A stretch of 64,000 nucleotides of DNA, from NCBI RefSeq assembly GCF_022846255.1, contig NZ_AP025682.1; one strand, given 5' to 3'. Positions 10,280 to 20,049 of the stretch are shown here, piece by piece. Under the pieces are notes generated by a model, which searched no databases, was not told where the DNA came from, and worked only from the letters and a program-made list of their open reading frames with translations. This stretch comes from Escherichia coli. GTDB lineage: Bacteria; Pseudomonadota; Gammaproteobacteria; Enterobacterales; Enterobacteriaceae. Position 1 is the first letter of the stretch, and each line of letters begins with the position of its first letter. Both the position numbers and the translations under genes were made by a program.

Positions 10280-10350
10280 ACACCAATTAGGTAAAGTTAT
10301 TTTTAAGTAATCGAGTAACTTGATCCTACCCACGTAATGTGGACACGGCC

Positions 10351-11205
10351 CTAAGCGAGATTATGGTTTTCAAATTGTTCCGGGCTGAGACCGCCACAGG
10401 CACTGTGACGACGCCAGCGATTGTAATCACACTCGATATAATTAAACACCGTTGCCCGCATTATTTCCCGGCTGCTAAAGCGTTCCCCGTGGATACATTC
10501 CACCTTCAGCGAATGAAAGAAGCTTTCCACACAGGCATTGTCATAACAGTAGCCTTTCGCACTCATACTGCCACGCAGGTTGTGTCGCTTCAGCAGCGCC
10601 TGATAATCCCCTGAACAGTATTGACCACCACGGTCCGTATGAACAATGACGCTTTCCGGGCGTCTTCTCCGCCACAACGCCATTTGCAGTGCATCACAGG
10701 CCAGTTGTGCTGTCATTCGCGGTGACATCGACCAGCCAATGACGGCGCGTGACCACAGGTCGATGACTACTGCGAGATACAACCAGCCCTCATCGGTACG
10801 CAAGTACGTGATGTCACCCGCCCACTTCTGGTTCGGGCCACTGGCGCTGAAGTCCTGCTCCAGCAGATTCTCCAATACGGGCAGACCATGTGCACGGTAG
10901 CTGACCGGGCTGAACTTCCGGCTGGCTTTCGCCCGCAGCCCCTGACGACGCAGGCTGGCGGCAATGGTTTTAATATTGAACTCCGGCAGTTCGTCAGCAA
11001 GGCGGGGATCACCGTATCGCTGCTTTGCCTCAAAGAATGCCTTATGGACAGCGGCATCGCAGGTGAGCCGAAACTGTTGGCGCAGGCTCATCTGGTGACG
11101 ACGCCTGAGCCAGACATACCAGCCGCTGCGGGCAACCCGAAGTACACGACACATCGCTTTGATGCTGAACTCTGCCCGATGATTTTCGATGAAGACATAC
11201 TTCAT
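10351..11205 (-). CDS. IS3 transposase OrfB (catalytic DDE domain; normally expressed as OrfAB by -1 frameshift)
   Basis: 284-aa ORF overlapping the orfA stop by 4 bp; DDE integrase-like sequence. Confidence 0.85.
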
Positions 11206-11501
11206 TTCAGGCGCTTCGCGAAGTATGTCGCGGCCTTTTGGAGGATGGCCAGTTCCTCAGCCTGCTCCGCCAGTTGTCGTTTAAGGCGGACATTTTCAGC
11301 GGCCAGTTCGCTTTCGCGCTCTGACGAACTCATTTGTTGCTGCTGTTTACTGCGCCAGGCATAAAGCTGAGATTCATACAGGCTGAGTTCACGGGCTGCG
11401 GCGGCCACACCGATGCGTTCAGCGAGTTTCAGGGCTTCGTTACGAAATTCAGGCGTATGTTGTTTACGGGGTTTCTTGCTGATTGATACTGGTTTTGTCA
11501 T
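11202..11501 (-). CDS. IS3 transposase OrfA (HTH/leucine-zipper)
   Basis: 99 aa, [32 protein letters not shown]... closely resembles IS3 OrfA. Confidence 0.9.
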
Positions 11502-11833
11502 GAGTCACCTCTGGTTGAGAGTTTACTCACTTAGTCCTGTGTCCACTATTGGTGGGTAAGGTCACGGCGGGGTTAGGTGCGTGCGCTGAACAAAATGACG
11601 AAGGTAGGAATGCCAGAAAGCGTGCGTATTGCCTGACGGTAGCAACCAGCTGAAGGGATGCTTATCCCCAAACCTGATTTATTCAACAAAGCCGCTATAG
11701 CCTTACCGGAACAATCACCACCTCCCCTGGAGGTGGTCAAGAATACAGCTCTGGCGAGCCGCATACCTTTAATTACCTGCTCTGATTAGATAAATCAGAT
11801 GCAGGTACATAAGTATGCCAGCATTATATGCAA

Positions 11834-13024
11834 TTAACGTTTCCGTCCTGGAAATACAAATAGTGCAATAACGGGAGATATTACCATCAGAACAAAAACA
11901 TAGGTAAATCCAAGTGTAAATCCGCCTGTTAGATCGACCGACCAGCCAATTAACTGACTGTTTATCGTTGCCAAAATAAATGTACAAACCCAGAAGGTGG
12001 ACATTGAATAAGTAACAGTTTGAGTATTCGCATTTTTTTGTTCTTCTTTTGGAATGGAGAAGATGAATGCAAACCAGGTGGCAAAAATAGAACCCGTCAA
12101 AAACGAACAAACCAATATAACGATATCATTAGTGGCAAATAACATTGCAAAGGTTGTAATAGCCATAAAGATACTGGAAATAAATAGCCATGATTTATAA
12201 TTATACCCACGGTTTTTAAAGTACGGCCCCATCAATGCACCAAGTAAAATCCCCACCTGATTGACTGTGCCACTCAAGTGAGCACAGGAGTCAGGGGGAA
12301 GATTAGCATATTTTGCATAGTACAGAGGCAGAAATGTGAACATAAAAATCATCATGATCATTGCCCCAGCATACTGAATAATCATTCCCCAGACAATACG
12401 ATTAAACAATACATCCTTTAATACAGATATTCGCTGTTCATAACTTATAGATATATGGCTATTCTGTTGTTGCTCTTCATCCGTGAAACATATTATCCAG
12501 ACAACCCCCAATATTAACGTAATTATTCCATAGATAGCTAACAGATTACGCCACCCGTTGAACAGCAGTGATAAATAACCTGCCAATGTCAATGCAATAA
12601 TTGTACCGATAATATTTGAAGTGCAATTTATACTATTTAATGTTGACGCCATTTTGTTATCGAAAAAGCGAGCAACCGTGGGCACCAGTGATACAAGGCA
12701 AATAGCCCCCCCCAGCCCACCAAGAAAACGAATAATCAATAACAAAGTAAAGTTATTAATAAATGGAATGAGCAAGGAGCTCCCAATCATTATACATCCA
12801 AGAAAATAGGATTTTCGGGTGCCGAGCCGGGAAACAAAGACTGCAGTACAAACAGCTCCCACAATTTTAGCCCATAAAATTACATTTGACATCAATGCAG
12901 CATGTGATACATCAACATTAAAATCACTCATAATTTGTGGCATTACGGCCCCTGTCGTAGCCCAGGCGGCACCAAATACCATATAAACGGTGTAAAGAAT
13001 GAATTCAATGACCCATTTTTTCAT
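11834..13024 (-). CDS. MFS transporter (12-TM)
   Basis: 396-aa hydrophobic protein; low GC; start overlaps the stop of the upstream peptidase gene by 4 bp (operon). Confidence 0.75.
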   Translation of the reverse strand: MKKWVIEFILYTVYMVFGAAWATTGAVMPQIMSDFNVDVSHAALMSNVILWAKIVGAVCTAVFVSRLGTRKSYFLGCIMIGSSLLIPFINNFTLLLIIRFLGGLGGAICLVSLVPTVARFFDNKMASTLNSINCTSNIIGTIIALTLAGYLSLLFNGWRNLLAIYGIITLILGVVWIICFTDEEQQQNSHISISYEQRISVLKDVLFNRIVWGMIIQYAGAMIMMIFMFTFLPLYYAKYANLPPDSCAHLSGTVNQVGILLGALMGPYFKNRGYNYKSWLFISSIFMAITTFAMLFATNDIVILVCSFLTGSIFATWFAFIFSIPKEEQKNANTQTVTYSMSTFWVCTFILATINSQLIGWSVDLTGGFTLGFTYVFVLMVISPVIALFVFPGRKR

Positions 13025-17814: not shown

Positions 17815-18295
17815 ATTTGTTACTCGCCCGGTTTTATCGTTAGGGTAATGTAATATTTCGAGGGAGGAAGTGTTATTCTGTATTTTGTTTTCGTTATTAT
17901 GAAAATTTGCATATGTGATGTTTATCACAAAGATGTTAACTATCTGTCAATAAAAAGACTCCAGCAAATGTAAACGTTTTACATCGCTTAAGCCTATGGA
18001 ATTTACATAAAAAAAGGGCGTGCCGAGTCTTTCGACCCAATCATTATCTCGGTAACTCCATTCACAAGAGCAGGAAATAACCTCTTCAACAAATAACAGA
18101 CTGATGCCTGCGAGCGCGCTCCCCAGGTTTCTGGGCTGAAAGTACCGCCGCACTCGTTTAACGCGGAACAGTCTGTGTTGGCGGTTTAATGGTGGATGTT
18201 GCTGTAGACCACAACTGATGAGGCAACGGAGTTTACCGTGATGATTCCTATTTATCATTTTCTGGTCAGTGCCGCGATTCTGGTATTTGTAGTGG

Positions 18296-19063
18296 TCAAG
18301 TAATACTGGCCACGGTTTTACAGTAAAAATGGTACCTGTTCTCGGACTCTTCCGGAGTCAACCCACCGTTATAATGGTGAGGTCTGATACTGTTGTAGTA
18401 GTTCAATATGTAATCATTAATTTGCTGCCGGGCCTCGTCCTTGTCGACGTAACCATTCGCTGGCACCCATTCTGTTTTCAGACTGCGGAAGAAGCGTTCC
18501 ATTGGGCTATTATCCCAGCAGTTTCCCCGCCGACTGACACTTTGCTTTATTCTGTAACGCCAGAGAATTTGTTGATATTTCAGGCCTGTATACTGGCTTC
18601 CCTGGTCGCTATGGAACATAACATCATGTGGTTGACCACGCGTCTCATAGGCCATCCGCAGGGCATCGCTTATCAGTGCAGTATCGGCATGTGCGGACAG
18701 ACTCCAGCCGATAACCCTGCGGGCAAAAAGATCCATCACAACCGCCAGATAGCACCAGCAATTTCCGGCCCAGATATAGGTAATATCTCCACACCATACC
18801 TGGTCTGGCTCGGGGACAGCGAACTGGCGCCCGAGCAGATTCGGCAAGCAGGTATGCTCCTGACGGGCATTTTTGTACTGATGTTTTCCGGGCTGACAAC
18901 TGCTCAGATTCAGATGTTTCATCAGCCGCCCGGCACGGTAACGGCTCATCGGGACGCCGTTTTGGGTCAGCATGTCAGCCAGCGTGCGCGCCCCCGCAGA
19001 GCCCCGGCTTTGGTTCCACACCCGGCGTATTTCACTGCACAACCTGACATGCACCGGATTCAC
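18296..19063 (-). CDS. IS3-family transposase OrfB (DDE domain)
   Basis: 255-aa ORF from first Met; true product probably OrfAB fusion via -1 frameshift from orfA. Confidence 0.8.
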
Positions 19064-19161
19064 CGTATCGCGTCGTTTTTGCCAGTACCGGTAACTGCTG
19101 CGGTGTATTCCCAGAGCAGAACACAGACTGACAACGGTGTGGCTGCCACTGAGTCTGGCAA

Positions 19162-19473
19162 CTATCGTGAACCGTTCAGCGAGTCGGACATCAAGAGTGC
19201 AGTAGCCTTTTTTAATATCGTATTTTGTTCCTCCAGGCGGCGAACCTGCTTTTCCAGCTCGCGGATACGTTGCTGGTCTGGAGTAATCGGTGTGGCAGAG
19301 GGGGCAATCCCCTGGCGCTCTCGTCTGAGCTGACGTACCCAGCTCTCAAGAGTGGTAGAGCCGACATTCATCGATTCACTGGCTTGTCGATATGAGTAGC
19401 CCTTATCAACAATCAGTTGCGCACATTCCAGTCTGAACTCGGGGGTGAAAGTACGTTTGGTTTTCTTGTTCAT
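19162..19473 (-). CDS. IS3-family transposase OrfA (IS911-like)
   Basis: [27 protein letters not shown]...[19 protein letters not shown]-terminus near-identical in character to IS911 OrfA. Confidence 0.8.
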
Positions 19474-20049
19474 TAAGTCACCTGTTTTGTGTTGAGGTGA
19501 GAATATCACCTTTAATCAGGTGGCCAAACTTACTGTGCCACTACAAATGTATACGAATTGTCATATTCAGACATTTGGGACTTAGATTAGTTGATAGGCA
19601 AAGTATTATAAATCATATTATACTTGTCTGCTTATACGTTGTTGTAAGTATAACATTACTCTATAAGGCGTTCTGACGCTAGGCGCGTTTTTTTATGTTT
19701 ACCCATATTTGGGTAAGAATTATTGTCGATAATTTTATTTTCCCATTTATATAATACTGTACGGCCGACGCCAATGCTCCAGGTGATGTCACTGGCTGAT
19801 CTCGTCGTGTACAAGCACCATGACAGCCCGATGTATCGTTTCTGGTTCAAAGAGAGCATCACGCTTGGTCTTACTGTTAAATATACGCTGTTTGTCGGAA
19901 TAAGGTTCATTAATTCAGCATGTGAGTGCATTATTATAAGGATAATCCAGAGTTCTGCTGGTAAATACCAAGCAGTTGCGATGGTTAAAATAATGCTCAA
20001 CTCTACACTATTTGCAAAGCAGATAGTGTGCTAAGCAAAATAAAAAACA

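Follow-up and report, generated by a model that had tools for sequence, protein, structure and literature searches.

IS3-family elements at chimeric joints in a mosaic pheV island of Escherichia coli

Sequence comparison supports the view that the two intact IS3-family elements in a low-GC transporter and peptidase region of Escherichia coli sit at chimeric rearrangement joints and not at simple insertion sites. We analysed a window of 64,000 nt, the whole stretch of DNA considered here (GCF_022846255.1, contig NZ_AP025682.1), and refer to the element at 10321-11564 as the ISEc16 copy and to that at 18288-19545 as the IS911-like element. The region very probably belongs to a mosaic genomic island that is integrated at the tRNA-Phe gene pheV, with AT-rich modules that were gained separately and stitched together at IS joints. 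The cargo would consist of a porin module, MFS-pepT, nhaC with a C-S lyase, and TetR with an MFS transporter; intact IS3-family elements would remain at two joints, and the remaining joints would be stubs (IS903-like, IS911-like and IS629-like). Target duplications are absent at both intact elements, probably because each lost or exchanged the DNA on one or both sides once it had inserted.

Island setting and cargo modules

The features discussed here, in order along the window, are:

8797-10320, + strand: porin (OmpC-like) module, CDS 8985-10097 (NCBIfam porin OmpC, 532 bits), right end cut by the ISEc16 copy
10321-11564, - strand: complete ISEc16 (IS3 family), 1,244 bp, orfA 11501-11202, orfB 11205-10351
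11576-11693, unstranded: IS903-like (IS5 family) terminal stub, ~118 bp, terminal inverted repeat 11674-11693
11834-13024, - strand: MFS transporter (396 aa; profile match), first gene of the MFS-pepT module (~11768-14313)
13021-14274, - strand: peptidase T paralogue (PepT; NCBIfam NF009920, 455.6 bits, cutoff 293)
14478-14614, unstranded: IS911-like orfA fragment (IS remnant)
14666-14771, + strand: IS629-group left-end stub, first ~100 bp, left boundary of the widespread nhaC-malY module
15192-16691, - strand: NhaC-family Na+/H+ antiporter (TIGR00931, 593 bits)
16636-17928, - strand: MalY/PatB-family PLP-dependent C-S lyase (TIGR04350, 370 bits, cutoff 340)
18198-18287, + strand: piece of a phosphoethanolamine-transferase gene, 90 bp (~nt 270-360), continuation missing in the window
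18288-19545, - strand: complete IS911-like IS3-family element, 1,258 bp, transposase CDS 19509-18296 with programmed frameshift
19546-22021, unstranded: TetR + CynX-like MFS module, TetR 21386-22036 (+), MFS 21270-20050 (-), joined to the IRL of the IS911-like element
27562-28824, - strand: tyrosine-recombinase integrase, homologous to annotated integrases, island anchor together with tRNA-Phe
29022-29097, - strand: tRNA-Phe (pheV), beside yqgA

The integrase adjoins the 3' end of tRNA-Phe beside yqgA, as in a pheV island, and Pfam domains are listed for a homologous integrase of ~96.5% identity. A search for repeats of the 23-nt tRNA-Phe 3' end, aimed at island boundaries or a tandem arrangement, gave no second copy in the 64-kb window at up to 3 mismatches, and the distal island end lies beyond position 1. 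The initial annotation had described a low-GC block bracketed by ISs. GC content at 11565-18287 is indeed low (41.9% vs 51.3% in core genes), but the DNA just outside both elements is equally AT-rich (41.1% and 39.1%), and therefore the two ISs do not delimit a compositional block. Window positions 1-18287 are 99.77% identical to Santai whereas the integrase-pheV segment is just 96.7% identical, indicating different histories on either side of the IS911-like element. No recognisable product emerged when the short stretches between modules were translated in all six frames.

Profile scores bear out the cargo identities read from the sequence earlier (MFS, peptidase T, NhaC and a PatB-family C-S lyase). 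The initial annotation treated 10321-19545 as one block, and a search for the same block with different flanks found its modules apart. MFS-pepT occurs in nine of 5,426 complete genomes, at 99.8% identity, and also on ~61-kb plasmids (86.7% identical), where its flanks are an IS91-family element and a transposase remnant. The nhaC-malY module (14666-18233) is found at ≥99% in 385 of the same 5,426 genomes, in 345 chromosomal places and 41 on plasmids. The block is thus not a mobile unit but a pair of modules, each with its own distribution, that IS stubs connect; assembly or trimming by IS activity remains the reading of its chimeric joints.

We give hardly any credence to a composite transposon in which the ISEc16 copy, the cargo and the IS911-like element move together. 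The layout resembles one in having cargo genes between two same-orientation IS3-family elements. The two ISs, though, show no nucleotide similarity and differ in their terminal repeats, so they form no composite transposon; the whole has no flanking duplication, and the unit was not found elsewhere. Nine complete genomes carry ISEc16 and cargo without the IS911-like element, the nhaC-malY half stands alone in ~375 other genomes, and MFS-pepT stands alone on plasmids with other IS flanks.

Between the modules lie IS remnants. The truncated IS629 end reported earlier inside the block was recovered as a stub; the opening 103 bp of a complete 1,310-bp element (L002) match it at 97% identity, and IS629 of Sakai pO157 matches it at 92%. 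The orfA fragment at 14478-14614 resembles the IS911-like element of Sakai pO157 at 77% identity and plasmid sequences annotated 'transposase' at 78.5%. At the left, the porin module is ~95% identical to ~100 E. coli plasmids with phage-type neighbours (lysozyme, portal protein), and the TetR-MFS module at the right occurs in none of the 5,426 complete E. coli genomes.

The two intact insertion sequences

The ISEc16 copy has the ends TGATCC...GGTCA. Full-length matches to it (1-1244, 99.3-99.9%) occur at many unrelated loci and carry the PGAP label ISEc16. The initial annotation had named it IS3; its ends were exact and the family was right, but the element is 81.4% identical to K-12 IS3B over its full length and 99.9% identical to a copy annotated ISEc16. 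We therefore rejected IS3 proper, and at 81% identity to K-12 IS3 the earlier label is loose. Like IS3 it has TG...CA ends, orfA and orfB with a programmed frameshift, and a 3-bp duplication (GAG) at a simple site elsewhere (L023); the window copy differs in lacking a duplication at this locus and in a private terminal-repeat base (11561 G), the single difference from the Santai copy.

The element at 18288-19545, with ends TGTAGTGG...CCACTACA, had been called IS911-like. Here too the exact ends and the IS3 family stood. The nucleotide identity is 65.7% to K-12 IS911A over 464 nt and 64.7% to the pO157 IS911-like copy over the full length, so this is a distinct IS, and the candidate identification as IS911 proper was rejected. 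It shares with IS911 a similar left-end sequence and organisation, a length of ~1.25 kb, and duplications of 3-4 bp at its other copies. Full-length copies at ≥99% occur in ~100 records, for which PGAP gives only 'IS3 family', whereas relatives of ~93.7% identity are named 'ISEc31 family'. Copies in ET350 and in draft genome GCA_048683285.1 (L037) are 100% identical to that in the window, and the window holds no second copy.

Both elements conform to the IS3 family in length and ends (1.2-1.5 kb, TG...CA), in NCBIfam transpos_IS3 matches on both ORFs, in Pfam HTH_Tnp_1 and rve domains, and in an orfA/orfB arrangement with a -1 frameshift, which identical or one-base-different copies have annotated as 'programmed frameshift'. 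The earlier statement that neither has matching target repeats held after exact end mapping. The ISEc16 copy lies between ...GTAACT and CGGCGG (ACT/CGG), with no 3-4 bp repeat, and its right flank begins CGGCGGGGTTAGG. The IS911-like element lies between ...GGTATT and AATGTA (ATT/AAT), also without a repeat, and its left flank ends ...CTGGTATT. Other copies of both elements are flanked by duplications, for the IS911-like element GGGC (L017), GTA (L019) and CTA (L037). The missing duplications are therefore a property of the locus and not of the elements.

At the ISEc16 copy, homology of the left flank to the phage-like plasmids extends right to the base that adjoins the IS, and in these plasmids ssb comes immediately after that point. 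The right flank holds the IS903-like stub, which shares 82% identity with the end of a copy that PGAP labels IS903B (L033); positions 11674-11693 match exactly what we take to be the IS903 terminal repeat (0.01 matches expected by chance). We also considered 11565-11767 as the 5' end of a group II intron and rejected it, as there was no Rfam match and the stretch holds this stub. In three genomes (e.g., L003) the same left joint is occupied by an ISEc16/IS3 hybrid, beyond which the right flank is different. Exact-pattern scans of metagenome contigs and species-representative genome contigs gave no IS-free context for the right flank, and among relatives we found neither a simple duplicated insertion nor an uninterrupted right flank. 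The ISEc16 copy would mark an older joint, common to nine complete genomes, between the truncated porin module of a phage-like plasmid and the IS903-like stub that precedes MFS-pepT.

The IS911-like joint in relatives

Comparison with related genomes, as the initial annotation had proposed, yielded uninterrupted versions of both flanks of the IS911-like element. Nine complete genomes, Santai among them, have no IS here, and their left flank leads straight into a phosphoethanolamine-transferase pseudogene, which in Santai runs on ~1.3 kb beyond the 90-bp piece kept in the window. The right flank is uninterrupted in a metagenome contig (L004), where it continues into unrelated DNA. The flanks thus lead into different DNA in relatives, in agreement with the earlier proposal of IS-mediated recombination or deletion over simple insertion.

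This comparison bears on the possibility that each IS came in by simple insertion and that point mutations later erased its short duplication. One mismatch in three positions separates ATT from AAT, as such decay would allow. For the IS911-like element the idea is refuted by its two uninterrupted flanks, which are unrelated sequences; at the ISEc16 copy ACT and CGG have no base in common, and the plasmid homologue of the left flank continues into ssb instead of the right flank seen in the window. Additionally, relatives match the neighbouring DNA at 99.8% identity, so that mutation has been minimal. We consider decayed duplications very improbable.

A misjoin of two contigs through the repeated IS is a comparably slim prospect. 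ISs are classic misassembly sites, and the IS911-like joint is in no complete genome; the IS911-like element was absent from this site in all 5,426. The same two junctions, however, are reproduced in three independent assemblies, namely an NCBI draft (L035, contiguous over 13.3 kb) and two independent metagenome/read-set assemblies (L005 and L007).

The draft genome GCA_048683285.1 carries the 100%-identical element in the same orientation, flanked by the 3-bp duplication CTA, at a point exactly 1,324 bp from the joint in the window. This genome and L034 retain the 1,324 bp between the right end of the IS and the window's junction point, as expected if an IS-adjacent deletion removed them from the window. 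The IRL flank differs as well, being TetR-MFS in the window and CTA plus integrase in the draft genome; a deletion that leaves the other flank unchanged does not describe the locus, so that one more event, or several, must have occurred. The base at 15103 is common to the window, L035 and L037 and absent from five other Santai-type loci checked, and at 14132 the same three share their base with just one other locus; shared-SNP support for common ancestry with L037 thus amounts to one or two sites. Strains 4600 and PK-F-10122 also have elements similar to the IS911-like one in their phosphoethanolamine-transferase region; these are related at 92.5% and lie elsewhere within it, and were set aside as not being the same insertion.

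These data point to an IS-adjacent deletion plus a fusion of two Phe-tRNA islands at the IS911-like joint. The element would first have entered a Santai-type island, at a site with the phosphoethanolamine-transferase pseudogene on one side and the integrase on the other, a state still visible, with its 3-bp duplication, in GCA_048683285.1. A deletion would then have taken the 1,324 bp next to IRR, and IRL would have become joined to the integrase-proximal 8 kb of another Phe-tRNA island, either because another adjacent deletion took place where islands lay in tandem or because a further copy of this IS recombined homologously with it. No L037-type or window-type IS junction, sought as an intermediate, was present among the 5,426 complete genomes, and no intermediate with just one of the two new IS911-like junctions was found; hence how many events there were, and in which order, is our inference. 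An independent second insertion followed by IS-IS recombination could alternatively explain the 1,324-bp offset.

A variant of this explanation, from which it differs in mechanism alone, dispenses with transposase-driven adjacent deletion. Two copies of the IS would have inserted independently, one in the Santai-type phosphoethanolamine-transferase pseudogene and the other beside TetR-MFS of another Phe-tRNA island, and homologous recombination between them, whether it deleted DNA within a tandem array or exchanged DNA between pheU and pheV, would have created the joint. Both flanks differ from L037, and a single crossover would account for both; the two empty sites are compatible with any 3-bp target; IS-IS recombination is seen directly in the ISEc16/IS3 hybrid; and Santai-type and GntR-type islands are found at pheU as well as pheV. 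The variant needs an extra, unobserved insertion at 18287/18288, however, and the window has no second IS911-like copy. A relative that has a rare SNP in common with the window carries the identical IS in the same orientation, only 1,324 bp off, which a local deletion explains more simply. We regard the recombination variant as a real possibility, though not a probable one.

A bolder and rather improbable idea is that the window and GCA_048683285.1 form a natural before-and-after pair, with a clean copy-out-paste-in insertion (CTA), a one-sided 1,324-bp adjacent deletion, and the same element fusing two Phe-tRNA islands. Since both island types occur at pheU and pheV, the fusion may in that case stem from exchange between these two sites, which would imply a large chromosomal inversion. 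The IS911-like joint is a recent, lineage-specific event that removed the remainder of the pseudogene and left the four cargo genes intact.

Relation to described islands and elements

GI-pheV is a mosaic island at pheV with a P4-type integrase gene (Nhu et al., PLoS Genet 2024, PMC11537424). In pheV islands modules are separated by ISs, and whole-module losses have been attributed to flanking ISs (PMC11537424). The region studied here is alike in having an integrase beside tRNA-Phe near yqgA and IS-separated modules that are gained, lost and recombined independently (PMC11537424). The cargo differs, being porin, MFS-pepT, nhaC-malY, TetR-MFS and GntR-MFS-SDR-enolase in the window and pap/sat/iuc/nan/flu/yee in the UPEC set (PMC11537424); nhaC and pepT are not mentioned in the GI-pheV paper. 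IS-separated mosaic pheV islands are thus already described, and assembly and trimming of this kind is ordinary and well documented for them.

IS629-associated deletions in E. coli O157 and the biology of the IS-excision enhancer (Ooka 2009; Kusumoto 2011) offer a second parallel, as far as they are summarised in PMC9943667. In both cases an IS3-family element is kept at the joint, adjacent DNA is lost (here 1,324 bp) and the duplication is gone; the O157 cases, in that summary, involve another IS. The mechanism proposed for the window is deduced from comparison of genomes.

The locus has little significance beyond bookkeeping, but it is a clean example of ISs stitching, trimming and fusing modules in tRNA-linked E. 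coli islands, and one joint comes with empty-site and pre-deletion comparators. The region may serve as a marker to trace a rare island variant. For annotation, 10321-11564 is better labelled ISEc16 than IS3, the cargo is better described as two independent modules, and an Rfam 'isrC' match is to be read as lying within an IS.

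Insertion sequences in the pheV island

Alignment of window positions 27565-36000 (integrase, tRNA-Phe, yqgA, speC, nupG, mltC, yggX and mutY) to E. coli chromosomes showed 97.5% identity. Since the tRNA-Phe gene adjoins an integrase, position 1 to ~29000 represents a genomic island at pheV. A search of the 64-kb window for a repeat of the tRNA 3' end found none, which places the distal boundary of the island beyond position 1. GI-pheV has been described as a mosaic of independently evolving gene modules separated by insertion sequences, with the flanking insertion sequences held responsible for deletions of whole modules (Nhu et al., PMC11537424). 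The phenomenon is already known; the island in the window adds a further example, in which one joint has unusually clear sequences for comparison. The relevant features are as follows.

10321-11564 (1,244 bp), orfA/orfB on the minus strand: ISEc16, ends TGATCC...GGTCA
14478-14614: IS911-like orfA fragment, just upstream of the IS629 stub
14666-14771: IS629 stub, beginning TGAACCGCCCCGG...
18288-19545, transposase on the minus strand: IS911-like element, ends TGTAGTGG...CCACTACA
29022-29097: tRNA-Phe, with the integrase gene directly to its left

The initial annotation had placed both intact elements exactly, but its name for the left one, IS3, did not hold. Its orfA and orfB both match NCBIfam transpos_IS3. 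The element is only 81% identical to K-12 IS3, and hundreds of PGAP-labelled ISEc16 copies at unrelated loci match all 1,244 bp at 99.3-99.9% identity. The right element, called IS911-like, is ~65% identical to the IS911 sequences of K-12 and pO157, and full-length copies at ≥99% identity were found in ~100 records. Precise mapping of the ends also bore out the reported absence of target repeats, the flanks being ACT/CGG for ISEc16 and ATT/AAT for the IS911-like element. Copies at other loci do carry duplications (GAG for ISEc16 in L023; GGGC, GTA and CTA for the IS911-like element in L017, L019 and L037, respectively), and the absence is therefore specific to the window locus. A full-length match to Rfam isrC (RF01387, 'Hfq-binding sRNA'; 135 bits) at 19355-19477 on the minus strand lies wholly within the IS911-like element, in the 5' part of orfA, and is IS-borne sequence rather than an independent sRNA gene.

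Two cargo modules between the elements

The DNA between the two elements had been regarded as a low-GC block bracketed by them. Its low GC content was confirmed (41.9%, compared with 51.3% in core genes), but it extends past both elements: the porin module on the far side of ISEc16 (41.1%) and the TetR-MFS module beyond the IS911-like element (39.1%) are equally AT-rich. The two elements are GC-rich spikes within an AT-rich island, and not the borders of a compositional block. They share no nucleotide similarity, which excludes a composite transposon.

The block comprises separate halves and is not a single unit, and each half was found elsewhere with other flanks. At ≥99% identity, the nhaC-malY half (14666-18233, with the IS629 stub) was found in 385 of the 5,426 complete genomes; 345 of its sites are chromosomal and 41 lie on plasmids. 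The truncated IS629 end noted earlier is real, being 97% identical to the first 103 bp of the full 1,310-bp copy in L002 (NZ_CP054345.1) and 92% identical to Sakai pO157 IS629. Only nine complete genomes carry the MFS-pepT half (~11768-14313) at 99.8% identity, and in all of them it is arranged with ISEc16 as in the window; a version at 86.7% identity lies on ~61-kb plasmids, flanked by an IS91-family element and the remnant of a transposase.

The nhaC-malY module in its common form, as in L002 (10001-14878), is enclosed by direct repeats: an IS629-like left-end stub of ~105 bp on one side and the full IS629-like copy on the other. The full copy also lacks a target duplication, and the arrangement resembles a composite-like structure that has decayed.

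A chimeric joint at the IS911-like element

Window positions 1-18287 align without gaps, at 99.77% identity, to strain Santai. In nine complete genomes, Santai among them, ...CTGGTATT continues directly as CATGGTGATT... without any insertion sequence, into the remainder of a 5'-truncated phosphoethanolamine-transferase pseudogene and then the integrase. To the right of the element, positions 19546-22021 hold a TetR and CynX-like MFS module (39% GC) that was found in none of the 5,426 complete E. coli genomes, and that occurs in one draft genome and in several contigs from gut-type metagenomes or read sets. In one such contig (L004), the TetR-MFS DNA continues without an insertion sequence into an AT-rich spacer and an IclR-DHDPS-dehydratase-PdxA cluster, which is missing from the window. 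These different uninterrupted continuations of the two flanks prove that the joint is chimeric, in agreement with the earlier proposal of IS-mediated rearrangement, and refute a simple insertion whose duplication had decayed. Identity to Santai falls from 99.77% in the left part to only 96.7% in the integrase-pheV segment, and the two sides of the element therefore differ in history. No complete genome among the 5,426 carries the window-type joint; it recurs in L035, an NCBI draft (99.94% over a contiguous 13.3 kb), and in L005 and L007, two independent assemblies of read sets, which speaks against misassembly.

A probable precursor of this joint was seen in the draft GCA_048683285.1 (L034/L037), whose island lies at pheU. 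There, a 100% identical IS911-like element in the same orientation sits between the intact pseudogene remainder and the integrase and is flanked by the duplication CTA; the corresponding empty site is seen in Santai. On the side of its right terminal end (IRR), the insertion point and the junction in the window lie exactly 1,324 bp apart, and relative to this draft the window has lost just the DNA adjoining the right end of the element. The base at 15103 is common to the window, L035 and L037 and absent from all five of the other Santai-type loci compared, and that at 14132 is shared with only one further locus; both are weakly but consistently in keeping with common descent of the three sequences.

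On the other side of the element the window has the TetR-MFS module whereas L037 has CTA and the integrase, and therefore at least one further event is needed. Homologous recombination with another copy of the IS911-like element could account for it, as could a second adjacent deletion in an array of tandem islands. Both island types were found at pheU and at pheV, so exchange between these sites is possible, and the fusion may possibly have arisen in this way. No intermediates between the window and L037 arrangements were found among complete genomes.

An older joint at ISEc16

The joint at ISEc16 is older. Both of its junctions are common to the nine complete genomes and to all loci retrieved with the exact MFS protein. 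On the left, the flank with the OmpC-like porin (8797-10320) shows ~95% identity to the porin region of ~100 E. coli plasmids (roughly 90-370 kb) with phage-type neighbouring genes; the one plasmid inspected has ssb, a lysozyme gene and a phage portal gene beside the porin. The homology reaches the last base before ISEc16, after which the plasmids run into ssb. This suggests that the chromosomal porin module is a piece of a phage-like plasmid captured by the island. The right flank starts with a ~118-bp terminal part of an IS903-like element, with its terminal repeat at 11674-11693.

An identical left junction was found in three complete genomes (L003, CP118601 and CP032426). In L003 (NZ_CP104629.1, 19321-20577), the only one of the three in which the structure was read, it is occupied by a hybrid insertion sequence with an annotated frameshifted transposase, the first 210 bp being identical to ISEc16 and the rest IS3, followed by thymidylate synthase, XRE and MazG-like genes in place of MFS-pepT. 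The hybrid is direct evidence of homologous recombination between insertion sequences at this site. No simple ISEc16 insertion with a duplication was found among relatives, nor any IS-free version of the right flank in metagenome and species-representative genome contigs. Rearrangement at ISEc16 is thus indicated by the hybrid, by the truncation of its neighbours and by the lack of a duplication. Overall, the proposal that IS activity assembled or trimmed the region is supported, with corrections to the IS names, the two-module cargo and the GC extent.

Within the terminal inverted repeat of ISEc16, position 11561 gives GGTCA in the window, whereas four other copies, including that of Santai, have GATCA. 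L035 shares the window's arrangement but not its base here; the base is private to the window, and the change may lower ISEc16 mobility. Further left, beside yjhF/yjhU, the island carries a mtnK-mtnA-class II aldolase-GRP sugar transporter cluster (3622-7786; methylthioribose kinase and isomerase, with the aldolase), found in ~2,170 of 5,426 genomes, mostly at ~96% identity. Between this cluster and the porin module lies a degraded TnpB/InsQ pseudogene of the RNA-guided endonuclease family (8230-8748), as annotated in the 99.8%-identical Santai locus.
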